Shown one piece after another: positions 13,507 to 24,979 of a DNA stretch of 64,000 nucleotides. The stretch lies in the sequence record PZ386953.1. One strand, given 5' to 3'. Each line of letters begins with the position of its first letter. Within the stretch, counting starts at the first letter, position 1. The notes below the pieces were generated by a model. It was not told the origin of the DNA, did no database searches, and worked only from the letters and a program-made list of their open reading frames with translations. The position numbers and the translations under genes are program-made. Source of the stretch: a phage.

Positions 13507-13740
13507 TTAATCTTCGTAAATCAGGATTTCTGCTTTAGGTTTTCGTGCTTTCAGGTCCAGCTCTATCCAGTGCACCATAGCTGTTTCAAGAAAAACAGCT
13601 TGGATGCATCCGTCCTCAGCGTGCCCCACCAACATAACGAGATCTTCACCTTCGTCATCTGCATCACGAACATAAAGAATCTCTCCAGATTCGAAGTCTT
13701 TCACAACCTGATTGCTAGATAATTTTCTAATTTTTGCCAT
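13507..13740 (-). CDS. small protein, possible divergent member of the adjacent tandem paralog array
   Basis: 77 aa, acidic; abuts the three 87-aa paralogs. Confidence 0.4.
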   Translation of the reverse strand: MAKIRKLSSNQVVKDFESGEILYVRDADDEGEDLVMLVGHAEDGCIQAVFLETAMVHWIELDLKARKPKAEILIYED

Positions 13741-13741
13741 A

Positions 13742-14005
13742 TCAGAAACCCTCTAAAAAGCTCTTGTAGAAAACAATCTCAGTATCCACACCAGTCACAA
13801 TCTTGTCGTTCCTGATTTCATCGGTAAGATAGGTGTCAAAACGCAGAACCTGTGTGGTGTTGTCACACATCCACTCAGCTGTGACCATTGCGAAAATCTT
13901 AGCATCTTCATTATCTGGTGTGAATGTTACCACCTCACCGCACTTAAACTTTTCGATAGGCTGAGTGTTAGCTTTCGGTTCTGCGATAGTGATTTTTGTG
14001 GTCAT
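13742..14005 (-). CDS. tandem paralog 1 (87 aa)
   Basis: Same length and shared motifs with the next two genes (CGEVVTF / CGTVVSC / APGTVVMF; all start MTT/MAT). Confidence 0.5.
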   Translation of the reverse strand: MTTKITIAEPKANTQPIEKFKCGEVVTFTPDNEDAKIFAMVTAEWMCDNTTQVLRFDTYLTDEIRNDKIVTGVDTEIVFYKSFLEGF

Positions 14006-14268
14006 TATTCTCCTCCTTCTTTTGAATAGCTTGTCTCTCCAAGGATGGTAATTTTGGTGTCAAGCTCTGTAACTTTCATGTTTGGCGGCAGATCGTACAA
14101 CTCATTATTTTCTAAATCGAACCCCCACACACAATGTTCTCCTGTTTTGACAATCATAACTATGTTTTGAATGCCGTCTCCGTCGCAACTTACCACGGTC
14201 CCACACGGAAAACTGTCTGCACGCTTTTTGTTCTTCACCTTAGAATTGAATACAATGCTGGTAGCCAT
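14005..14268 (-). CDS. tandem paralog 2 (87 aa)
   Basis: See paralog 1; ATGA start-stop overlaps. Confidence 0.5.
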   Translation of the reverse strand: MATSIVFNSKVKNKKRADSFPCGTVVSCDGDGIQNIVMIVKTGEHCVWGFDLENNELYDLPPNMKVTELDTKITILGETSYSKEGGE

Positions 14269-14531
14269 TATTGTTCCTCCACCATAACTTCGCCAAGAAT
14301 TTCTATGCAGGCATCCATTTCTGTAACAACCAAACTGTGAGGCAGTTCTACAAACACCTTTCTGAACAGGTCAAATACCCCAACATATATGTTTGCAGGA
14401 TGTGATTTTACAACAAGTGCTGTATTCACATCCCCAAGTTCATCAACAAACATCACCACAGTGCCTGGAGCTACTGAGGACAGATACTTCTTAGTTTTAC
14501 GGTTTGATGCAAATTTTAACTCTGTTGCCAT
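14268..14531 (-). CDS. tandem paralog 3 (87 aa)
   Basis: See paralog 1. Confidence 0.5.
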   Translation of the reverse strand: MATELKFASNRKTKKYLSSVAPGTVVMFVDELGDVNTALVVKSHPANIYVGVFDLFRKVFVELPHSLVVTEMDACIEILGEVMVEEQ

Positions 14532-14546
14532 AAATAACCTCCTCTC

Positions 14547-16028
14547 TTACTTAGCGTACTCGATTAATTCCACAGTTTTCCCAAAGCTCGGGATATAATT
14601 TTTATTATACCCCTCAGTGAGGACCCATAGAGTATCGTACTTTTTCCACTTGTTGTCAACAACCTTTTGTTCAAAGTTATGCTCAAAGTATAGGTCGGTC
14701 AGGACGATGACATCTTTTGCATTAGGTATGTTGGCATCCAGATACTCGAACACGCAAGCAGCTGTTGTGCCCCATGTTGAGTGGACCTCATAGTTGACCA
14801 TCTCGTCTATGTTGCCGCGAGTGTATACTTTAACCTCTCCAACCTCAGTTGACCAACAGAACATTGTAACCTTAAACTCTTTATACAGATTGCACAATCC
14901 GGTGATTTCATTGAACATTTTCTTTAAAGTTCTTTGAGAGATCGAGCCAGAAACGTCTAAAGCCACCACAATATCTATAGTGTTTTCCGGATTACGACCA
15001 GGAACAATAACGTGCTGGTTCTTGTTTATAGCCCCAACTTTTCGCATTGTGCTGGTCAAAGACCCAGATCGGCGACCAGGTTTTCTGTAGGTCAGTTCGG
15101 CCTTTCTTTTAGACAACATACGTTGCTTAATGATGTCTATATAGTTGATTACAGGCTTACCTCTGTTCTTGACAAACTCACGCACCGCCTCAGGGCAACG
15201 GCCTCCGGACGCTTGCATTGCTGCCTCCAGCATATCACCAGAGTCCTGCATGGCCTGATCTTTATCAGATTGGCTGATTACAGGTTGTGGCTGATCATAC
15301 CCCATAGCCTTTCCAAGATTATCACTGGTGCCACCGTTCCCACTCATGTGATCATCGGTTTGTCGCTTATCACTTTGAGAGTTCTCACCTTTACCGTTCT
15401 TACTTTTACCGTTATTCTGATCTCTTTGCTTATCAAGAACTGCATAAACGTTCTCAGCAATCCATCCATGAAACTTCATGTCGCAGTAGCAGCTGGCTAA
15501 GAAGCCAAAAGGCTTACCTTTCATGAACGTAGTGCTTTTCCCCTTCGGGAAGAAAACACAAGGAGGTTTGCTAAAGTCAACCACAAGGCCTGTGTTGATA
15601 ACGTGATCACAAGCAATATTGAACAGTTCCGGCTCAAAGCTTTTACCACGGACTAGGTGATCACAGATAATATGCCCCACCTCATGTGACAGAAGGAAGG
15701 CCACCTCTTTCACAGATTTTGGGGAATAGAAAACTTCAGCCATCTCAAACTGCTCGTCAGTTAGAGAAGCCTTAAGAATAGCCTTGCGTTCATCAGCCAA
15801 TCCCATAATGAACTCAGGACTGTAATAGATGCGTTTATGGTCGGTTGCCATGGTGGAGCACCATGTGTGGTTTTCTACGAACTGCAACCCTGACAGTAGT
15901 GTGCCATAAAACGGCAACTTTTCAAGGAGATACATACGTGCAGCCTGCAACATTCTCAGGGCATCATCTTTCTGCGAGGCAATGATTTCTGAACTTCTGC
16001 TATCCATTAAAACTCCAGGAGGGGCCAT
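14547..16028 (-). CDS. HExxH metallopeptidase-like + von Willebrand factor A (VWA) domain protein
   Basis: LLSHEVGHIICDH (HExxH) in N-terminal half; VWA MIDAS motif DxSxS as VVALDVSGSIS in C-terminal half; domain pairing typical of MoxR-associated VWA proteins. Confidence 0.65.
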   Translation of the reverse strand: MAPPGVLMDSRSSEIIASQKDDALRMLQAARMYLLEKLPFYGTLLSGLQFVENHTWCSTMATDHKRIYYSPEFIMGLADERKAILKASLTDEQFEMAEVFYSPKSVKEVAFLLSHEVGHIICDHLVRGKSFEPELFNIACDHVINTGLVVDFSKPPCVFFPKGKSTTFMKGKPFGFLASCYCDMKFHGWIAENVYAVLDKQRDQNNGKSKNGKGENSQSDKRQTDDHMSGNGGTSDNLGKAMGYDQPQPVISQSDKDQAMQDSGDMLEAAMQASGGRCPEAVREFVKNRGKPVINYIDIIKQRMLSKRKAELTYRKPGRRSGSLTSTMRKVGAINKNQHVIVPGRNPENTIDIVVALDVSGSISQRTLKKMFNEITGLCNLYKEFKVTMFCWSTEVGEVKVYTRGNIDEMVNYEVHSTWGTTAACVFEYLDANIPNAKDVIVLTDLYFEHNFEQKVVDNKWKKYDTLWVLTEGYNKNYIPSFGKTVELIEYAK

Positions 16029-16040
16029 TGGCCCCTGTCA

Positions 16041-17081
16041 TTATTTAACGTGTTTGAAAATACCTGCCAACTCGGTCATTGTCATGCGGGTGGTCTTCAT
16101 AAGATCTGTCATAGCTTTCTCCATAATTGGAGATACTACCATAAAGTTTCCTTTAGTGAAACCTTTATTCCAGTCGGTCACCAACAGGGGTTTAAGTCCA
16201 GCTCCAAGACGTTCACCAGTTAAAGCACAGCATTTGCGAATATACGAACTCTTAAATTGGCTGAACGACAGATCAACTTTCATACCTACATCGTAGAACG
16301 TTTGACAATAGAAAGTGTAAGCTTTGGCAATCTCAACATCATCAGGTAGTGCAGGAACCTCTTCTGTAAGCCCCTCTTCGACCTCCTGAGTCTCTTTTTC
16401 CTCTTCATGCACCTGTTGCGTCATTTCTTCAATCTCTTCTGTGATAGGCTCGTTTACAATGTCGGAAATGTGCTTCTTGGGTGCACGATAAGTAACTTTA
16501 GACATCGGTAGCATATCTTCCTCCTCTTCTTCGTCAAAGAGTGCTAGTTTATCCTCTTCCGTTCCATATTGCAAGATGAAATCTTCAAAAGTATAATCAC
16601 CTTTCAATTTCTCCATACGCTCTTCGCTCAGGTGGAGCATCATCTGCTGGACAATTTTTCGATCAGTTTCGTCTTTAATCAAGACTGCAGTCTTTTTATC
16701 TACCAGACAGTCCTTTAGAGAGTTGCATCTCAATCCCACCACACAACAGTTATCAACCGCATAAGGACCTTCATCATCTATCCGCTCCAGGGATGGGTAG
16801 AAAGGATTCCCCAGCCCGTTTTCATCTGTGTGCATGTCAAAAGGTATAAGGGTATAGTCGCATACTCCATCTCCTAAAAGTTTTTTACCAAATAGGAGGT
16901 ATTCTTCCCATGACAGGTCGAACTCTATATCTCGTTTCCGTGCGTTATTCTGTTTGCGTCTATATTTTTTGAGCAAGCGCTCTAACTCTTCTGGTGTATA
17001 ATATTTTTCAAGATTCATGAGTCGTCTCTCGTGCTCTGTAAGTGAAGAAATCGTATCAATTGTCTCAACAGATGTCAACAT
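16041..17081 (-). CDS. acidic hypothetical protein (possible degenerate HNH-like region; internal SD+ATG)
   Basis: 347-codon ORF from TTG at 17084, ATG one codon later; poly-acidic stretches; internal GAGGAGG+ATG at the MSKVTYRA motif. Confidence 0.45.
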   Translation of the reverse strand: MLTSVETIDTISSLTEHERRLMNLEKYYTPEELERLLKKYRRKQNNARKRDIEFDLSWEEYLLFGKKLLGDGVCDYTLIPFDMHTDENGLGNPFYPSLERIDDEGPYAVDNCCVVGLRCNSLKDCLVDKKTAVLIKDETDRKIVQQMMLHLSEERMEKLKGDYTFEDFILQYGTEEDKLALFDEEEEEDMLPMSKVTYRAPKKHISDIVNEPITEEIEEMTQQVHEEEKETQEVEEGLTEEVPALPDDVEIAKAYTFYCQTFYDVGMKVDLSFSQFKSSYIRKCCALTGERLGAGLKPLLVTDWNKGFTKGNFMVVSPIMEKAMTDLMKTTRMTMTELAGIFKHVK

Positions 17082-17091
17082 CAAAAACGTG

Positions 17092-17120
17092 TTGACTTTA
17101 CTCTAACTCCACAATATAGT
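17092..17120 (+). promoter_or_regulatory. sigma70-like promoter in divergent intergenic region
   Basis: TTGACT - 17 bp - TATAGT about 40 bp upstream of gene at 17161. Confidence 0.5.
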
Positions 17121-17160
17121 GCACCCATTCGAAAGAAAACTAACATAGGAGCACTTACTT

Positions 17161-18060
17161 ATGGCAAATCTTAACAGTTTTAGTACGCGGTGGAAACAGG
17201 ACATAACAACCAATCTTTCAGCTGGGGACATCCTTTCTGCAATTTACGAGGCTTTAGATGATAAAGCTACTTCAAAAGCGGTTTGTACCAACCCATTAAT
17301 TCCTATAGTGATGAAGGTTATTGAGCGTAGATTGGTATCTGGGTCTGATAAGTGGACATATTTAGATAATGAAGGACACACCTATTCCAATGGGTATGTC
17401 GATATAAAAGTAGAATACGCGGTATCATACCGCCGGAGCGGTTCTGTAACTTTCAACTTCTCTGGAGGTTTTCGATCTCTGGCTACCTCACCTTTTGTTT
17501 CCTCGGAGGAGAAGTATGAGCTGCCATTTCTTTGGATGATGGCTAACGCGACAGGAAAAACCCCCGTTAGCATCCGAGTAAAATACAACTACAACGGATC
17601 TAGTAAGATCTATGCCGAAAGTGTCTCAGCAAGTTTTTATTTTGTGATGGGGGATGGAATCCTCAAACATATAAAGATGTGCGATATGCATGATGTTATA
17701 AATGAAGTGACTGATAAGAATGTTCTAGTGAAAGACCTCAACAATTTTTATACACCTGGAGACTATTACGTCAGCCGTCCACTGTGCATCTTTAATGCCG
17801 CACACCCTCTAGGTGAGTATTTGATCGCCAATAGCGATATTGCCAATAACCGCTTCGAGGTAGCAAGAGTTCAGAATGAGGTATTGACATCTTGCAAGAG
17901 CGGTGATAAGTTTACCGAAGAAGAGATGGGTGTTTTAGAAATGATGGGATATAAGTGTAGCCTTTGGGTAGATGAGGTGTTTAATGATTGCATCTATGGA
18001 CAGGATATTTACCCATTAAAGAAGTATACTGATACAAGTTTAATTTATGCGAGGGTTTGA
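17161..18060 (+). CDS. hypothetical protein
   Basis: 299-aa ORF with AGGAG SD. Confidence 0.5.
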   Translation: MANLNSFSTRWKQDITTNLSAGDILSAIYEALDDKATSKAVCTNPLIPIVMKVIERRLVSGSDKWTYLDNEGHTYSNGYVDIKVEYAVSYRRSGSVTFNFSGGFRSLATSPFVSSEEKYELPFLWMMANATGKTPVSIRVKYNYNGSSKIYAESVSASFYFVMGDGILKHIKMCDMHDVINEVTDKNVLVKDLNNFYTPGDYYVSRPLCIFNAAHPLGEYLIANSDIANNRFEVARVQNEVLTSCKSGDKFTEEEMGVLEMMGYKCSLWVDEVFNDCIYGQDIYPLKKYTDTSLIYARV

Positions 18061-18335
18061 CTATGATGAAGGCATGTGGTAATGTATATTACGTCGGTGA
18101 ACATGTTCAGGCAGACAGTGTGTGGAAATCTATTAAGTCCACCACTGACGATGCCTTTCTGAGTGGACTATGTTTCCCCAATCCGGGAGACATCCTCCCT
18201 CATCCTGGAGATTTTGTTGTCAACAAGATGGACGGTTATACCGTGTGCCTGATGGTTGAAAAAATCTTTTTAGACACTAGACACAATCACCGTCTTGTGT
18301 TAAAATTTCAAGAATGTAAAATGACAATTGCCTAA
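18057..18335 (+). CDS. hypothetical protein
   Basis: 92-aa ORF, ATGA overlap with upstream gene. Confidence 0.4.
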   Translation: MTMMKACGNVYYVGEHVQADSVWKSIKSTTDDAFLSGLCFPNPGDILPHPGDFVVNKMDGYTVCLMVEKIFLDTRHNHRLVLKFQECKMTIA

Positions 18336-18348
18336 GGAGACCTTACCG

Positions 18349-18705
18349 ATGTCTAAAGTTACTTATCGTGCAGCTATTTACTGCAATGAACACCCAATCA
18401 ATAATGATGGTCACTGCCTTTTTAAAGAAAATCAATTGGGCTGTATTGTCCTCCCCGATGAAGGGGAAGGTTATCTGATTGCATTGACAGGGTTTGAACC
18501 TGAGGCTCTGGAAGCCAATCTGGACTACCTGGTAGAAGAGGGTGCTGCAGACCTGGTTGCCAATGGCCTCTCCATAAGCCTTGACGAAGTAGAGCGCTTC
18601 ATGGGCAATTACCGTGTAGTGCGTGAGTTTACTATCGAGGTGGAAACTCCCGAGTGGGGTAGCCATGAAACTAATGCCGAAGAAAAAGAAGAGGAGGTAG
18701 AATAA
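18349..18705 (+). CDS. acidic hypothetical protein
   Basis: AAGGAGA SD 8 nt before ATG at 18349; first 8 codons MSKVTYRA lie in the 29-bp inverted repeat shared with gene 16041-17081. Confidence 0.5.
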   Translation: MSKVTYRAAIYCNEHPINNDGHCLFKENQLGCIVLPDEGEGYLIALTGFEPEALEANLDYLVEEGAADLVANGLSISLDEVERFMGNYRVVREFTIEVETPEWGSHETNAEEKEEEVE

Positions 18706-18962
18706 TGAAAGTGCAGATCTTGACTAATGCTGAGAAGATGTTTATTGAAGATACACCTTTTGAAGCTGGTGAGCTACAGTTCGTTTATTTTGTTGACTTA
18801 GATAAGGTGTTTCCTGCACTGAATCTAGGTTTGGATGAAGTTCCTCATAAGGTTTTGTGCCGAGTTGTTCGTGCCTTAGCGGCAGAGGGGGAGTTCCACA
18901 CCCTTCAAGATGTCCAGACCTACGGGTATCTTGAACTACAACGAGAAGAAGAGGTGGACTGA
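18705..18962 (+). CDS. hypothetical protein
   Basis: 85-aa ORF, SD GAGGAGG, start overlaps upstream stop. Confidence 0.45.
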   Translation: MKVQILTNAEKMFIEDTPFEAGELQFVYFVDLDKVFPALNLGLDEVPHKVLCRVVRALAAEGEFHTLQDVQTYGYLELQREEEVD

Positions 18963-18964
18963 TA

Positions 18965-19345
18965 ATGGCTCAGTGGAAGACAACAGTTGACCTTCATGAT
19001 CAGTGGTTAGGACGCATCACTGAAGACGGGAAGCTAGTGGAGTGGGACAATAAGCATGTTAGCGAGTTGGCAAGTATTGTGGCTGGCAAGTTACGCTCCA
19101 AGTTCCCTGAACAACTGGATCCTGATAGTTCAAAGTTCGATCCTGAGTTAGAGGATGTTGTATACTACTTCGACACCGTTGATGACTACGACGCGTGGTT
19201 TGCAGCACGGGAGCTTTACCCACAAGGCTCTGCTATGCGCCAGATGGAAGAAGATTATCCTCCGTGTGAGCAATTCAATAGTGCAATGACTTGCCTCTAT
19301 GATTGGGCAGATAAGAACCTTGTCTGGATTCGGACTGCATTTTAG
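18965..19345 (+). CDS. hypothetical protein
   Basis: 126-aa ORF. Confidence 0.45.
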   Translation: MAQWKTTVDLHDQWLGRITEDGKLVEWDNKHVSELASIVAGKLRSKFPEQLDPDSSKFDPELEDVVYYFDTVDDYDAWFAARELYPQGSAMRQMEEDYPPCEQFNSAMTCLYDWADKNLVWIRTAF

Positions 19346-19389
19346 TGGGCAGGAATGGCGGCAAGGATGCTGCTTAAGGAGTAGTAGAG

Positions 19390-19659
19390 ATGTTATACCA
19401 GCAATATGAACTTCGTGCAGAAAAAGAGTTAAATTTTGACAAAGATATTCACAGATATTATTATGGGAAAGTTAGAGGGCAAGCAAGAAAGTGTACTCCA
19501 ACACTCTTTTATGCCAGCAGACGACTAGCGCCAGAAGAGGCAACAGCAGAAAGGGTTGCGTACAACTGGAGAGTCACGTATGATATTGACAGATTCGATG
19601 TGATATCTGTTTTGGAAAACTTTGAAAACACTTACACACAAGTAGAGGACTTTTACTAA
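19390..19659 (+). CDS. hypothetical protein
   Basis: 89-aa ORF with AAGGAG SD. Confidence 0.45.
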   Translation: MLYQQYELRAEKELNFDKDIHRYYYGKVRGQARKCTPTLFYASRRLAPEEATAERVAYNWRVTYDIDRFDVISVLENFENTYTQVEDFY

Positions 19660-20843
19660 TGTCAAGAAACGTATTCGAAAGTGGTCAAATCACTGTCCGT
19701 GAGTTGCCAGCTATTATTCAGTTTGCCCAACGTCATAGCCGATCTGTCCTAATTTTGGGACCAATGGGTGTGGGTAAAAGCCAGGTGATGAAGCAGATCG
19801 CTGATAATATGTTCGGTGAGCGAGATGACAACCTTGTTGACGTGCGACTGTCAGATAAAGATCCTGCCGACTTATCTGGGCTACCTATCCCTGTAGAAGC
19901 GGATGGAACTACACGTACAGTGTTTGCAATTCCAGAATTTTGGCCTGCGAATCCTGACTGGAGCGGAATTATCTTTCTGGATGAGCTCACTCATGCAGAT
20001 AACTACCTGCAAAAGGTTGCAATGCAAATTATGCTTGACCACAAGTGCGGCACCTATGCATTCCCTAAGGGCTCTGTTTTTGTGGCTGCGGGTAACCGTT
20101 CTACAGATGGTGCGGTTCTTTCGGCGCTCGAAGCCCCTCTGGCTAACCGTTTTATCATTGTAGAGGTTACAAGCAATGCAGAGGTGTTTATTGAGGACTA
20201 CGCATTCCTCAACGGGGTTCACTCCTCTGTAATTGGGTATCTGAAAAGAGTTCCATCAGCTATTGATAATTATGAGGCTATGGCTGAGATTAATTGTCCA
20301 TCTTTTGCCACACCACGATCTTGGGTTGCTGCATCTGACATCTTGCACGATTTTGACAGCGGTATTATTTCTGACGCTATGGCCCGTGTTCTTCTGCAAG
20401 GTGCTATTGGTCACACTGCAGCGGTAGAGATCTGGACTTACCACACCAAGAAACGTAATTTACCGGAAATCGGTCGGATTATGGCAGGTGGCTGCAAAGA
20501 ATATGTAGGTCCTAAGCAGCCAGACATTTTGTGGATTCTTGGATCTGAAGGTTGTATCGCTATTCGCAATATGATGGAAAATGCAAGTATCTCAGACGAA
20601 GATCTTGTCAGCTGCGTGGCAAACTTCCTCGATTTCCTTTGGGAAAACTTCAAGGACGAGAACCGAGATTTTGTATTCTCAGTCTTTATGGCGATGATGA
20701 AACCTAATGCCTTAGGAAATGCCTTGCTTATCGGTAAAGGGCGTGACAAGATTGTTGCTCAGCTGATCAAAGCATACCCAAACCTGATGAAGATTGTAAA
20801 AGAGTTTGGTGAAGAGTTTAGCGCCATTTTGGCTAAAGCTTAA
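19659..20843 (+). CDS. MoxR-like AAA+ ATPase (AAA_5 type)
   Basis: Walker A LILGPMGVGKSQV, Walker B IIFLDELTHAD, sensor region VFVAAGNRS. Confidence 0.75.
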   Translation: MSRNVFESGQITVRELPAIIQFAQRHSRSVLILGPMGVGKSQVMKQIADNMFGERDDNLVDVRLSDKDPADLSGLPIPVEADGTTRTVFAIPEFWPANPDWSGIIFLDELTHADNYLQKVAMQIMLDHKCGTYAFPKGSVFVAAGNRSTDGAVLSALEAPLANRFIIVEVTSNAEVFIEDYAFLNGVHSSVIGYLKRVPSAIDNYEAMAEINCPSFATPRSWVAASDILHDFDSGIISDAMARVLLQGAIGHTAAVEIWTYHTKKRNLPEIGRIMAGGCKEYVGPKQPDILWILGSEGCIAIRNMMENASISDEDLVSCVANFLDFLWENFKDENRDFVFSVFMAMMKPNALGNALLIGKGRDKIVAQLIKAYPNLMKIVKEFGEEFSAILAKA

Positions 20844-20853
20844 GGGGGGTTGT

Positions 20854-21234
20854 ATGGCTAAAGTAGGTAAGCGGGGAAACTACCTGGTGGTATTGACCGA
20901 GGAGCCGGAGAAGGAGTACGAATGCAGCTCCACTTGCGTGATCGATATCCGAGAAAAAGATGTAGATGAAGTCTGGTTTAAAATATTGGACGCTTGCGAT
21001 AGCAGTGATTATTTCTTCATTTATGTCAACGATAAGGCTGGATTCTTCCATGACGACGGAGAGTTGCCGTATGAAATCTATGAACTTGTAGAGGCTTGCC
21101 ATCGTGGAGATGCGGAGTTGTTTGGCCTACGGCTGAAAAGCGGTAAATTCTTCTATCAAGATGAGTGCATGAATCTTCATAACTTTGTAGAGGGAACTTG
21201 CAACGATGGAGAGATTTTGGCACACTACGATTAA
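20854..21234 (+). CDS. hypothetical protein
   Basis: ATG at 20854 preceded by AAGGGGGG SD; Cys/acidic-rich. Confidence 0.45.
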   Translation: MAKVGKRGNYLVVLTEEPEKEYECSSTCVIDIREKDVDEVWFKILDACDSSDYFFIYVNDKAGFFHDDGELPYEIYELVEACHRGDAELFGLRLKSGKFFYQDECMNLHNFVEGTCNDGEILAHYD

Positions 21235-21246
21235 TTTCTAAGACCT

Positions 21247-21273
21247 CCCCCGCTTCGGCGGGGATTTTCTATT
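21247..21273 (+). terminator. intrinsic terminator
   Basis: Hairpin CCCCGC-TTCG-GCGGGG followed by ATTTTCTATTT. Confidence 0.7.
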
Positions 21274-21283
21274 TGGAGTCATT

Positions 21284-21784
21284 GTGAAAATTAAGATCTT
21301 TGCTATTATTTTGAGCGCACTTTTATCGCTGCCTGTTGTTGCAGCACCAAAACAAAAAGTATATCATACTTGCAAGCCATCAGATACTAAGGAAAACATT
21401 CTGGCATGCAATATCTACAGGGAAGCTAGAGGAGATGGCACGATGGGTATGCTGGCATCTGGGTTTGCCACACTAAACAGGAAATCCCACCCTAAATACC
21501 CAGACACTATAAGAAAGATTGTCTACCAACCTAACCAGTTTTCGTGGACAAACCACGGCAAAACTTTTAAGGTGACAGAAAAAGATTCATGGGATCACGC
21601 TAAAAGTCTTGCAAAGATGCTTCTAAAGGTCTATAATAACAACCATGTTGCATACATGGCTATGGACATAACAGGTGGAGCAACACACTACCATACAACC
21701 AAAGTACGACCGAAATGGGCAAAAAAGATGCAGAGGACAGCTCAATTCGGGAGCCATATCTACTACAAGGAGCGCAATAAATGA
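21284..21784 (+). CDS. secreted SleB-like cell wall hydrolase (candidate signal-peptide endolysin)
   Basis: N-terminal signal peptide MKIKIFAIILSALLSLPVVAAP; SleB/Hydrolase_2-like motifs CNIYREARGD ... LNR ... QFSW. Confidence 0.6.
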   Translation: MKIKIFAIILSALLSLPVVAAPKQKVYHTCKPSDTKENILACNIYREARGDGTMGMLASGFATLNRKSHPKYPDTIRKIVYQPNQFSWTNHGKTFKVTEKDSWDHAKSLAKMLLKVYNNNHVAYMAMDITGGATHYHTTKVRPKWAKKMQRTAQFGSHIYYKERNK

Positions 21785-23763
21785 TTGTAAACAGTAATGA
21801 AACTAAAGCAGTGCTGACCGGAAATATGGAGGTCACCAGGGGCTCAATTTCTCTGAACAAAGAGACTTTTGGGCTAATCATTAAAGGGATTTACGAAGAT
21901 AAGGTGCTGGCAAGCTGCCGTGAACCAATCTTCAATGCTGTGGACTCCCATGTTGAGTCTGGACGGGGTGATGTACCGATCATCATTCACTCTCCTACAG
22001 ACCTTGAACCATACTTCTTTGTGCAGGACGTTGGATTGGGCATGTCAGAAGAGATGGTCCGCAACACTTTCATGAATCTCGGGGAGTCAACCAAGCGCAA
22101 CAGCAACGCTCTGGTAGGTAATAAAGGTGTTGGTTCAAAGGCTCCGTTCAGTATGGTGGACACTTTCGATGTTATCAGTGTGCACAATGGTGTTGAAAGC
22201 ACATATCTATTGTTCTTGGATCAGGGTATCCCAAACGTTACCAAGATCCGTGAGCGGAAGACTGAAGAGCACAACGGGGTAAAAGTTCAGTTCCATGTTA
22301 AGAAAGAGCATGTCCTGAAATATCGCACTGCTATTGCATCGTGCTTACGCTATGCGAAGTTTCCGTTCATCGTCACCGATCCTATGACCAGTAAGATGTT
22401 AGAAGGTGACAAGGTTGAGGCACAGTATCATTACGAGAAGGATGGCTGGAAAATGACCATCCTGAAAGGTTATACCAGTTCTGATGAGAGCCGTGTTGTG
22501 ATGGGTCACCAACCTTACCGCTCCAAGTTCCTGGAGACATTGACCGATTACCCTGCAATCTGCGTGGAAATTCCTATTGGGGATTGCAATATTAACCCTG
22601 GGCGTGAATGGACCATAGAGGGCCATGACGACGGTGGATTCCAGGATCGCCTGGAGGCCTTTGTCAAAGAAGGTATACGTCTTCGCGGGGCAGAAGTTAT
22701 TGCAGAACTGGAGACGGCAAAAACCTCCGCAGAAGCACGTGAAATGATGAAGAATAGTGGAGTGTTCGGACACATCTTCGGCAAAAACTTTATGTGGAAC
22801 CGTTGGGAAGAAACAGGGCTTGGCGACTTAGGCGATTGTGAAATTTTCGCTGGCGGCTTAAATAAAGGCCGCATAGGCTATGCTCGTTACGGAAAGTCGG
22901 AGTTCTTACGAGGTGTATACCTTGTATTTAACGACGGAGATGGTAAATATAACCGAAATAAGTGTAACTACTTAAGCGAAATCACCGGACGCAACGTTTT
23001 CTATTGCCGGAACACGGATCTGGTGAAAGAGTTTAAAGAGGCGGCACACCATCCGTTCTTTGCAGATACTGTCAAATTGTTATCAGAGCTCCCTCGCCGA
23101 CCTGCGAAGAAAGGTGAAACAAAAACTCATTACGAGCCAGGTTATTGGGTTAAAAAGCTTGAGAAGGATGGTTACTTCCGTCGTGAACGTATTACTAAGG
23201 CAGAGTTCAAGAAGATTAAGCACTGCATTCCTTATGAGGGTGATATCCAACGTGGAAGTTGTTGGCTGGGACAGCTGAGTAACATCTACCAGCAAAATTA
23301 TGACCGTGTGCGTGCTGCACTCCAGATTCCTGAAGGTGAAGATCTGTACTTGGTATCAGAATCTCGTCTGCTTTGGACTGATCCTGATTGCCAGTATGTT
23401 ACAGAGAAGAATGTGGAACACTTGTTGAAAGAGGATGCTTGGAAATTCTTACTGACTCGCGCAGCAAATGAAACTTCATATGACAGCTTGTATAGACAAT
23501 TAGGGAAAATTATCCCCATGCAGGATTTTGGAAATTATCGGCCACATTTCCACAAGTGGGAAGGTAACACCGCGTGGAAGCACAGTGAGCTAAATCATCG
23601 TGCCAAAATCTTAATCGCCAACCGGGTTAAGTGCGGGAAGGCCTATATTGCAAGATTGGAAAAGAAATATCCACTTTTGAAGCATGTGGGCTTGAAATAT
23701 TGGGACACCCCTGCTATGATTGAATACCGTGAGCTGATCGATACAAAGAATAACATCAAATAA
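21781..23763 (+). CDS. rIIA: rIIA-like protein with N-terminal GHKL ATPase domain
   Basis: GHKL N-box EPIFNAVDSH, G1 box QDVGLGMS, G2 box GNKGVGSKAPF; size and position before an rIIB-sized gene. Confidence 0.55.
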   Translation: MIVNSNETKAVLTGNMEVTRGSISLNKETFGLIIKGIYEDKVLASCREPIFNAVDSHVESGRGDVPIIIHSPTDLEPYFFVQDVGLGMSEEMVRNTFMNLGESTKRNSNALVGNKGVGSKAPFSMVDTFDVISVHNGVESTYLLFLDQGIPNVTKIRERKTEEHNGVKVQFHVKKEHVLKYRTAIASCLRYAKFPFIVTDPMTSKMLEGDKVEAQYHYEKDGWKMTILKGYTSSDESRVVMGHQPYRSKFLETLTDYPAICVEIPIGDCNINPGREWTIEGHDDGGFQDRLEAFVKEGIRLRGAEVIAELETAKTSAEAREMMKNSGVFGHIFGKNFMWNRWEETGLGDLGDCEIFAGGLNKGRIGYARYGKSEFLRGVYLVFNDGDGKYNRNKCNYLSEITGRNVFYCRNTDLVKEFKEAAHHPFFADTVKLLSELPRRPAKKGETKTHYEPGYWVKKLEKDGYFRRERITKAEFKKIKHCIPYEGDIQRGSCWLGQLSNIYQQNYDRVRAALQIPEGEDLYLVSESRLLWTDPDCQYVTEKNVEHLLKEDAWKFLLTRAANETSYDSLYRQLGKIIPMQDFGNYRPHFHKWEGNTAWKHSELNHRAKILIANRVKCGKAYIARLEKKYPLLKHVGLKYWDTPAMIEYRELIDTKNNIK

Positions 23764-23773
23764 GGAGACCAAG

Positions 23774-24979
23774 ATGATTTTCATCTACGAACATTTCAAA
23801 ACCCGTAAAGAAGCACGAGACCGCCGTGCAGAACTTGAGAAGAAGGGTTTCACATGTGCCGTTGAGAAAGGCGACACAACCTGGACACTGGCAGTTGGTG
23901 CCCCAGAGTTGTTCGATCCTGACCGTGACAGCGTCTGCTACACCCGTGAGGATTTTGAAACCCGCGAAGAGGCCCGTTTATTTCGATACGGTCTGGAAGA
24001 TAACGGTAAGTACGCTATGATCTTAGATTTAGGCGAAGGTTCCGTTAAACGTTGGGGCGTGGTATACCCACTGTGTGTTGTTCACGGTGTGGGGTTCACT
24101 GGGGTGGCAATCAAGTCAGAAGAACCTTTAGTAGAAGTCAAAGATCCGGTGCTGGAGGTGGTGAGCAGTGTGTCTCAGCAACAGACTCGAAACATCGAGC
24201 CTTTGGTGGTTATTTGTGGGGAACTCCTCCAGATCACCTGCAACGAAGGCATTTTTGAAATTCGCCGCAGCGAAAGTGAGGAAGTTTACCAGAAAGTCTT
24301 CGACCATATCTCTGTTCAGGAATATGACGAGGCAATTGGTGAAATCCTTGTCTGGTTGGAACGCAAGAATGAGTTCACTACACTTGCAGACAACCTGATT
24401 ATGAAAGATGGTAAGCTCTATTACTACGGTGTAGAGATGCAATCTACCATTGCAAAGAAAATTGAGGAAGATTATATAGATGGAACACTGGACGACCGAT
24501 ATGTTAAATTCCTTGTCCGTCTGCTACGCAACCCGTCTGCAAAATCTGTGAACATGCTCTACGATTTCATGCAGGCTAATGACATCCAGGTTGCAGAAGA
24601 TGGTCGAATCATTTGCTATAAGGGGGTTCAGTTTAACGGAAGCAAGTGGGTGGATTGGCACAGCGGTAAAGTTCCACAATACCAGGGTGCTTTTGTATCC
24701 ATGCCTCGTAACTTTGTAGAAGATGATCCGGAAGCTGCGTGTTCTTATGGCCTGCACTGCGCCAGCAAAGAGTATGCAGCGGGCTATGGCACCGTAATGA
24801 TGGTTATGGTTGACCCTGCGGATGTGGTTAGTGTGCCATACCAACACAACAGTGCTAAGTGCCGTGCATGCCGCTACGAAATCGTAGCAGCACCGGAATC
24901 ACGCAAAGATGGCGATCCGATTGAATACGTGGTTGACCGTGATGGTAACACTATCGACATTCTTTACGAGGAGGCGTAA
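23774..24979 (+). CDS. rIIB: rIIB-like protein (putative)
   Basis: 401-aa ORF immediately downstream of the rIIA-like gene; assignment by synteny only. Confidence 0.3.
   Translation: MIFIYEHFKTRKEARDRRAELEKKGFTCAVEKGDTTWTLAVGAPELFDPDRDSVCYTREDFETREEARLFRYGLEDNGKYAMILDLGEGSVKRWGVVYPLCVVHGVGFTGVAIKSEEPLVEVKDPVLEVVSSVSQQQTRNIEPLVVICGELLQITCNEGIFEIRRSESEEVYQKVFDHISVQEYDEAIGEILVWLERKNEFTTLADNLIMKDGKLYYYGVEMQSTIAKKIEEDYIDGTLDDRYVKFLVRLLRNPSAKSVNMLYDFMQANDIQVAEDGRIICYKGVQFNGSKWVDWHSGKVPQYQGAFVSMPRNFVEDDPEAACSYGLHCASKEYAAGYGTVMMVMVDPADVVSVPYQHNSAKCRACRYEIVAAPESRKDGDPIEYVVDRDGNTIDILYEEA

Follow-up and report, generated by a model that had tools for sequence, protein, structure and literature searches.

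Two genes of one phage genome encode proteins that would be expected to work as a pair, but they lie on opposite strands, several kilobases apart. Are they nevertheless the two halves of one module, how did they come to be separated, and what could the module do? The locus in question belongs to a window of 64,000 nucleotides (nt) of phage DNA (sequence record PZ386953.1; by the window we mean the whole stretch analysed). It encodes a MoxR-class AAA+ ATPase and a partner of the DUF2201 family, in which a putative metallopeptidase domain is fused to a VWA domain bearing a MIDAS metal site. The preliminary description of the locus had pointed out that MoxR-VWA pairs normally form one operon, and relatives of the present genome indeed keep the ATPase gene followed by the DUF2201 gene on one strand; in this genome no VWA partner is found in the ATPase operon, the pair being split. 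The two genes are the following (lengths in amino acids, aa; ORF, open reading frame; AF2, AlphaFold2).

19659..20843, plus strand: MoxR-class AAA+ ATPase, 394 aa (evidence: ORF, phrog_1297, homologues, alignment, AF2 model, Foldseek, family profile)
14547..16007, minus strand (earlier ORF to 16028): DUF2201-family partner, 486 aa from the preferred start (evidence: Pfam, alignment, GenBank start)

Comparison of the region 14000-21500 with phage records by megablast matched 122 records, 115 of which cover at least 80% of it. Since the best match is Escherichia phage Murica (99.8% identity, 100% query coverage), the source genome is identified as that of an rV5-like coliphage (Vequintavirinae, Vequintavirus murica). 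Both genes are already annotated in near-identical GenBank records, the ATPase gene as "MoxR ATPase" or "ATPase" (the former also in the rV5 record DQ832317 itself) and the partner gene as "putative metallopeptidase", "VWA-like domain containing protein" or "metal-dependent peptidase". A MoxR ATPase with a peptidase-VWA protein has been described in group 2.2 jumbo phages (Iyer et al. 2021, Viruses 13:63; PMC7824862), and the same pair has been listed as gp24 (AAA) and gp25 (vWFA) of phage N4 since at least 2009 (PMC2784036). The novelty implied for the pair in the preliminary description is thus withdrawn: the two-gene module is real but already known, and it is carried by hundreds of sequenced phages, among them podoviruses, myoviruses and jumbo phages, as well as by some bacteria. 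The split merely rearranges this known module and does not amount to a new type of system. The new detail is a minor one and concerns gene order only, namely what appears to be an old inversion that left the pair on opposite strands flanking a two-way promoter region; in our literature search no paper turned up that mentions the split in Vequintavirus, nor any that links rV5 with MoxR.

The ATPase was described earlier as an AAA+ protein with Walker A/B and sensor motifs, and this is borne out. The ORF is present, its AAA+ core spans approximately residues 25-265, and in an alignment of 27 sequences Walker A, Walker B, sensor 1, arginine finger and sensor 2 are intact. Walker A is formed by G34-S41 (GPMGVGKS) and Walker B by D108-E109; residues G37, G39, K40, S41, D108, E109, N146 (sensor 1), R147, R164 and R220 are invariant. 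The protein matches phrog_1297 ('ATPase') with E=3.7e-110. A check of the AAA_5 assignment with hidden Markov models (HMM), which the preliminary description had proposed, gave a divided answer: the direct Pfam match to AAA_5 reaches 16.8 bits, below the gathering cut-off of 22, with AAA_3 unlisted, but same-clade homologues as well as profile and fold searches back MoxR. Direct Pfam/NCBIfam assignment, which yielded generic AAA matches only, all of them sub-threshold, was set aside, as was a single-sequence search of the PDB, which yielded P-loop-local similarity to ClpB, ClpC and p97 only. The class was taken from homologues, profile and fold instead. Homologues at 30-36% identity (E ~1e-43) hold, according to precomputed annotation, PF07726 (AAA_3), PF07728 (AAA_5) and sometimes PF20030 (bpMoxR), and the AAA_5 threshold is passed by ATPases of the same clade from Sulfurivermis fontis (43.9 bits), S-TIM5 (25.0 bits) and PA5oct (24.0 bits). 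A profile built from the 27-sequence alignment matches the AAA modules of Midasin with E=6.7e-11, from Walker A to past sensor 1.

The AF2 model of the ATPase (pLDDT 84, pTM 0.75) contains a helix-2 insert β-hairpin (strands 75-81 and 84-90, between β2 and β3) and a pre-sensor-1 hairpin (short strands at ~129-134, before β4). In the Foldseek search of the PDB with this model the top 16 matches are to NorQ, either by itself or within NorQ-NorD complexes, and to CbbQ2, with E from 6.5e-8 to 2e-6. The C-terminal helical extension (~265-394) has no counterpart in the matched NorQ/CbbQ2 chains, which comprise ~241-267 residues. Judged by homologues, the 27-sequence alignment, the profile search and the predicted fold, the 394-aa protein is an ATPase of the MoxR/AAA_5 class.

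The partner consists of an N-terminal HExxH zincin-like putative metallopeptidase domain, a disordered acidic/Gly-rich linker (~212-235) and a C-terminal VWA domain. The HMM check gave a clear result here, both Pfam domains scoring above their gathering thresholds and standing in the order DUF2201_N, DUF2201: PF13203 (DUF2201_N) covers residues 96-321 with 99.1 bits (threshold 23.2, E=4.4e-28), and PF09967 (DUF2201, VWA-like) covers residues 353-488 with 44.0 bits (threshold 26.4, E=2.9e-11). In an alignment of 34 diverse homologues, with identities down to 19%, residues H115, E116, H119, H124 and D141 (HExxHxxxxH...D) are invariant, and so are all residues of the MIDAS (D358, S360, S362, G420, T421, T444 and D445). 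The partner has a Rossmann-like VWA fold with a complete MIDAS (DxSxS...T...D). VWA matches filled both lists of its fold searches, the VWA domain of NorD and the MIDAS domain of Midasin among them, so that these lists contain no solved peptidase matched by the N-terminal domain. For the peptidase domain the sequence links are weak: a profile match to the minigluzincin MJ1213 with E=0.025, and Peptidase_M48 at 19.2 versus 20.3 bits in the PA5oct homologue. A basic motif (consensus 'RPxRR') with nearly invariant R319 and R320 precedes the VWA core, and the helix-2 insert (H2-insert) region of the ATPase holds the conserved acidic residues D61 and D71. These elements are candidates for contacts of the finger-in-pore type and should be taken as leads only.

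The partner had been described as a 493-aa protein encoded at 14547-16028. The ORF, the HExxH and the MIDAS stand, but the length is probably 486 aa. The start at 16007 is preferred to that at 16028 because its ATG has a GGAG ribosome-binding site 8 nt upstream, GenBank gives the same start (486 aa), and the homologues begin at the equivalent Met, whereas the ATG at 16028 lies inside a hairpin with a GC stem of 7 base pairs (bp). The minus-strand sequence before the gene reads ...TAA-ataatgac-AGGGGCCAATGGCCCCT-cctGGAGttttaATG.

16020..16036, minus strand: GC-rich hairpin AGGGGCCA-A-TGGCCCCT (found by scan; RNA fold -18.1 kcal/mol, z = -2.6)

The hairpin is situated between an anti-sigma-like gene and the DUF2201 gene, directly 5' of the DUF2201 ribosome-binding site, and is possibly an attenuator or an RNA-stability element.

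Annotation of the partner is inconsistent across records. Many mislabel the gene as HNH endonuclease, anti-sigma factor or DNA repair ATPase, and the names protease and Zn-dependent hydrolase are also in use. PHROG families 1314 (the DUF2201 protein) and 3118 (its acidic neighbour) both carry the label 'HNH endonuclease'.

That the two proteins belong together is indicated by gene order and co-occurrence elsewhere. Eighty IMG/VR loci around relatives of the ATPase were fetched, 69 of which have at least ~350 nt downstream of the ATPase gene. By tblastn, 68 of these 69 have the DUF2201 gene as the immediate downstream neighbour, on the same strand as the ATPase gene; the exception (L024) has a radical-SAM gene downstream of the ATPase, followed by the contig end. 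With a median ATPase identity of 68%, the 80 loci belong to a single broad clade with shared synteny, approximately one lineage, and were down-weighted as independent support. Eight other lineage groups, Certrevirus of the same subfamily and one bacterium among them, likewise have ATPase before DUF2201 on a single strand. Adjacent genes are found in Cronobacter phage CR3 (Certrevirus) and its relative L006 as well as on the chromosome of S. fontis, they overlap in cyanophage S-TIM5, and in jumbo phage G17 (Asteriusvirus) they form a terminator-bracketed two-gene unit. In the N4-like phage LIT1 the genes for "N4 gp24-like" and "N4 gp25-like" proteins are separated by one small ORF, and in PA5oct three small genes and a homing endonuclease gene stand between the two on the same strand. 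The gp numbering of the PA5oct paper differs from that of RefSeq.

Co-occurrence in related genomes had been named beforehand as the test on which the pairing could fail, and the pairing withstands it, the counts in rV5-like records and in single genera being nearly equal. Both genes occur at ≥95% identity in about 118-119 rV5-like records, and across all phage records tblastn finds the partner in 620 and the ATPase in 813. The counts for single genera are as follows.

Escherichia: DUF2201 in 211 records, ATPase in 214
Pectobacterium: DUF2201 in 26 records, ATPase in 26
Cronobacter: DUF2201 in 17 records, ATPase in 17
Campylobacter (as labelled): DUF2201 in 16 records, ATPase in 16

At least one of the ATPase-only cases reflects limited sensitivity of tblastn and not an absent partner: S-TIM5, initially taken for such a case, does have the DUF2201 gene. 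The 16 records titled 'Campylobacter phage' (host C. jejuni; e.g. MG065635, unannotated) are ~99.5% identical to this E. coli rV5-like phage, which suggests that their host was mis-assigned or that they represent contaminating coliphage.

Clustering of the ORFs in the neighbourhoods of nine lineage groups leaves the ATPase and DUF2201 as the sole families common to more than three groups, so the module consists of two components; in these neighbourhoods neither a third gene nor an adjacent substrate gene accompanies the pair in a conserved manner. Thymidylate synthase, whose repeated association with the pair had been considered, dropped out in this clustering, where just the two module genes are shared. 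Taken together, conserved linkage in relatives, domain identities and invariant residues support the earlier claim that the ATPase and the DUF2201 protein are a genuine pair of a MoxR-type ATPase and a VWA-peptidase partner.

Only Vequintavirus and its nearer relatives have the pair split. The arrangement changes along a series of genomes, listed here by identity to the proteins of the window.

L006: ATPase 35%, partner 34%; genes adjacent
L090: ATPase 42%, partner 38%; same strand, four small genes between
L089: ATPase 49%, partner 42%; split
L088: ATPase 54%, partner 43%; split
L087: ATPase 72%, partner 62%; split
Window: ATPase 100%; split

As long as the pair is unsplit, the genes for a SleB-type hydrolase and PIF1 helicase are oriented divergently from it; where the pair is split, they run in the direction of the ATPase gene, and it is DUF2201 that is divergent. 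One inversion of the ATPase segment accounts for both the flip of SleB relative to the ATPase and the divergence of DUF2201, and the synteny fits such a single event. It would have had one breakpoint 5' of the ATPase arm and the other between ATPase and DUF2201. Because the divergence of the partner tracks that of the ATPase and the catalytic residues are intact throughout, comparison of the sequences argues that the two genes still work together despite the split. The Vequintavirus lineage is thus a natural case of an operon broken by inversion with both halves kept, which supports continued co-function without adjacency, and operon-based detection of MoxR-VWA pairs will overlook such split cases. 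Two insertions were seen near the pair in relatives: an IS605 OrfB/TnpB-like gene (365 aa; L089 8081-9178) between the divergent promoter region and the ATPase gene in the 49%-identity relative, and the homing endonuclease gene between ATPase and DUF2201 in PA5oct (L093 8406-9902).

The separation over a divergent promoter region by about 3.6 kb, as first described, is accurate: the genes are 3.63-3.65 kb apart on opposite strands and flank the intergenic region 17019-17160, which holds predicted sigma70-like sites. The annotation of phage Gotham has promoters at the same positions as both sites.

17050..17120, both strands: divergent predicted sigma70-like promoter pair (consensus scan, 10/12 matches each; Gotham annotation)
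16041-17018, minus strand: acidic protein, 325 aa, isoelectric point (pI) 4.76 (65 D+E versus 43 K+R)
21248..21263, plus strand: intrinsic-terminator-like hairpin CCCCGC-TTCG-GCGGGG followed by a T-run (scan; terminator in the Gotham annotation)

The predicted minus-strand promoter (17078..17050) consists of -35 TTGACA (17078-17073), a 17-nt spacer and an extended -10 TG-TACGAT; that of the plus strand (17092..17120) consists of -35 TTGACT (17092-17097), a 17-nt spacer and -10 TATAGT. The inverted repeat first described as 29 bp long is present, but its core (GTCAACA-N9-TGTTGAC, 17074-17096) has 23 bp, and 29 bp are reached only if imperfect flanks are counted. As read from the consensus match, the repeat consists of the two -35 hexamers, which stand back to back and point outwards. 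Its 7-nt arms are not significant on their own, and an inverted-repeat scan of 15900-19700 at default-like stricter settings reported nothing at the promoter. A dedicated operator was rejected, the arms being just 7 nt long and accounted for by the two -35 boxes. The terminator-like hairpin at 21248-21263 suggests that the plus-strand unit probably extends over 17161-21234, with the ATPase gene second to last.

The protein noted between the two genes is indeed acidic, but 325 aa long (start at 17018) and not 347. It has no Pfam match, but PHROGs labelled sigma70 decoy / Srd anti-sigma factor / endonuclease VII match its N-terminal region with E from 5.6e-15 to 4.5e-10. The gene is confined to the split clade, where it invariably sits immediately 5' of the DUF2201 gene. 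Neither element can be counted as part of the system, as had been implied: the acidic protein is the product of a neighbour gene limited to the split clade, and the inverted repeat is promoter architecture.

A near-consensus sigma70 site (19436-19464, plus strand; TTGACA, 17-nt spacer, TATTAT, 11/12) lies inside an 89-aa ORF, ~195 nt 5' of the ATPase start, and the homologous position of the 72%-identity relative (L087 9778-9806) has TTGACA, a 17-nt spacer and TATCAT, again 11/12. By its sequence the site may be an internal promoter for separate transcription of the ATPase; the conserved codons F-D-K and Y-Y could instead account for the match.

The closest known systems are the jumbo-phage pair and N4 gp24/gp25, which belong to the same two families according to reciprocal tblastn and Pfam, with a DUF2201_N plus DUF2201 partner. 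Their genes are on one strand, adjacent or nearly so, in contrast to the opposite strands and 3.6 kb found here, and the Vequintavirinae proteins differ from the jumbo and N4 ones by lineage-specific insertions, e.g. of ~38 residues before HExxH. The best structural matches of the ATPase are NorQ-NorD (iron insertion into nitric oxide reductase) and CbbQ-CbbO (Rubisco activase), with Foldseek E ~1e-7 and TM ~0.6-0.66 of target. They share with the phage pair the helix-2 insert hairpins and a MIDAS-bearing partner, the NorD VWA domain being among the fold matches of the DUF2201 protein. However, sequence identity is 16-22%, NorD and CbbO are without a peptidase domain, the target is different, and ~130 additional C-terminal residues of the phage ATPase form a helical region beyond NorQ/CbbQ. 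Midasin/Rea1, a eukaryotic AAA_5 ring that carries a MIDAS itself, gives the ATPase family its best match by sequence profile and contributes its MIDAS domain to the fold matches of the partner. In contrast to the phage pair, it is a single giant polypeptide of six fused AAA modules without peptidase and acts in ribosome biogenesis. Compared by description, p618 (MoxR) and p892 (VWA) of Acidianus two-tailed virus (ATV) are another viral MoxR-VWA pair, reported, as cited in PMC7824862, to act in virion (tail) morphogenesis; that virus is archaeal, and its VWA protein is without a peptidase domain.

What would such a module do? The pair is probably an ATP-driven machine that remodels and cleaves a protein, its ancestral operon having been broken by one inversion; we consider this interpretation of the combined analyses likely, though not certain. 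It would be a self-contained module, widespread in phages and bacteria, made of a MoxR-class AAA+ ATPase and a zinc metallopeptidase-VWA/MIDAS fusion. By analogy with NorQ-NorD and CbbQ-CbbO the ATPase would form a hexameric ring. The VWA domain of the partner would dock on the ring, probably by way of a finger-like element that enters the pore and touches the helix-2 inserts, and with a second contact, as in the cryo-electron microscopy model of NorQD, which combines a finger in the pore with MIDAS (PMC13036017). The MIDAS metal site would grip an acidic residue of the target protein. ATP hydrolysis would then twist or stretch the partner, thereby remodelling the target and presenting it to the fused HExxH domain, which would cleave the engaged protein. 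In this phage the inversion of the ATPase-bearing segment would have placed the genes of the former ATPase-DUF2201 operon on two arms of a bidirectional sigma70-type promoter region with early-type genes around, an arrangement that would still allow expression at the same stage.

Several points weigh against this reading. The searchable literature holds no biochemical, genetic or transcript evidence for the pair in any phage, so the statement of the preliminary description that the function of phage MoxR-VWA pairs has no experimental answer holds as far as this literature shows; no Vequintavirus transcriptome was found in it, and the CRISPRi-ART screens cover neither EdH4 nor N4 genome-wide. 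We infer the physical interaction of the two proteins from conserved gene linkage alone, and independent support for adjacency amounts to about eight lineages and not 80 loci. The peptidase reading of the N-terminal domain draws on Pfam, the invariant HExxH and the weak matches to MJ1213 and M48, and the divergent promoters are consensus matches only. Nor does any conserved target gene stand next to the pair in the neighbourhoods of the nine lineage groups. The target is not deducible because the genomic context differs by lineage: early-type genes (rIIA/B, PIF1, an Srd-like gene) in rV5-like phages, replication genes in N4-like phages, structural genes in Asteriusvirus. What the module does is a fair question, for which the present window is no more tractable than N4 or other carriers.

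Two proposals for its use are of comparable weight and stand below the remodel-and-cleave machine, of which they are sub-hypotheses. It is possible, though on the doubtful side, that the pair is an early host-takeover or counter-defence protease, whose MIDAS would recognise a host protein or complex that is extracted or unfolded and cleaved soon after infection. The early-type location and predicted sigma70-type promoters in this phage point that way, as does the position of the pair among early, middle or replication genes in N4-like phages and the IMG/VR clade; the absence of a conserved phage-encoded neighbour fits a target common to many hosts, and in the split clade the DUF2201 gene is directly 3' of a gene related to the T4 Srd / sigma70-decoy families. 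This support is contextual, however, and comes without a target candidate. PADLOC models have no similarity to the DUF2201 partner and match the ATPase marginally, in the P-loop region only (E=0.003-0.007), the jumbo-phage context is structural (G17), and the pair also occurs in bacterial chromosomes near housekeeping-type genes, so it is not conflict-specific. Rather unlikely is a chaperone/protease of virion assembly that folds or assembles structural proteins and trims them proteolytically, as proposed for jumbo phages by Iyer et al. (2021) by analogy with ATV p618/p892 (PMC7824862). The G17 pair is embedded among head, tail and structural genes; mass spectrometry of phAPEC6 virion preparations detected a 49.5-kDa ATPase whose size and gene position agree with those of the homologue (PMC7247149); and the PA5oct ATPase bears an 'ESI-MS/MS' note. 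The same proteomes list non-structural enzymes, however (thymidylate synthase in phAPEC6, exonuclease in PA5oct), so detection of the ATPase in virions is weak evidence of a virion role, and the DUF2201 partner is not among the phAPEC6 proteins in the portion of the list examined. The rV5-like genes, moreover, lie in an early-type region beside rIIA/rIIB, PIF1 helicase and the anti-sigma-like gene under predicted sigma70-type promoters, the LIT1 pair is directly upstream of helicase and DNA polymerase genes, and the same pair is found on a bacterial chromosome (S. fontis).

We regard as unlikely a targeted protease of a hitherto uncharacterised kind, shared by N4, rV5 and jumbo myoviruses, in which a MIDAS 'hook' on a MoxR ring would seize a host or phage protein for cleavage by the fused zincin, in early or middle takeover or counter-defence; if true, the split of the rV5 clade and a possible private ATPase promoter would allow separate dosing of the halves. 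Two further explanations are less likely than the other rivals. That the pair is a chaperone for metal or cofactor insertion into a metalloenzyme, like NorQD, CoxDE and CobST, with HExxH as a metal-handling site and not a protease, is quite improbable. The closest solved structures are those of NorQ/NorD and CbbQ, many characterised MoxR-VWA pairs serve metal-centre assembly (PMC13036017), and a ferrochelatase gene is situated two genes downstream of the S. fontis pair; but the invariant HExxH with an extra His and Asp is the classic zincin catalytic signature, Pfam groups the domain with putative metallopeptidases, and no metalloenzyme neighbour is conserved across the lineages examined. Very improbable is a functional uncoupling of the rV5-like pair since the inversion, each protein acting independently. 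The genes are in separate transcription units, and the near-consensus sigma70 site at 19436-19464, kept in the 72%-identity relative, could regulate the ATPase alone. Against this, both genes are kept with catalytic residues intact across the split clade, where identities fall to 49% for the ATPase and 42% for the partner, the divergence of ATPase and partner proceeds in step (72/62, 54/43, 49/42, 42/38 and 35/34 %), and the rV5-like record counts are nearly equal (118 versus 119).

Some features of the neighbouring genes deserve mention. The four small ORFs that follow one another immediately 3' of the DUF2201 gene (77, 87, 87 and 87 aa; 13507-14531, minus strand) have near-equal lengths, 15-22% identity and a 'G-x-V-V' element near residue 23, which gives them a weak paralogue look. 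The first gene of the plus arm (299 aa; 17161-18060, plus strand) is labelled 'putative alpha 1-3 fucosyltransferase' in many records; its product has no Pfam/NCBIfam support for this, the sole match being phrog_12338, to which no function is assigned. Just downstream of the ATPase arm, at 21781-24979 on the plus strand, are homologues of rIIA (HATPase_c_3; phrog_612) and rIIB; according to the CRISPRi-ART study of the rV5-like phage EdH4, such divergent rII genes counter lambda RexAB.

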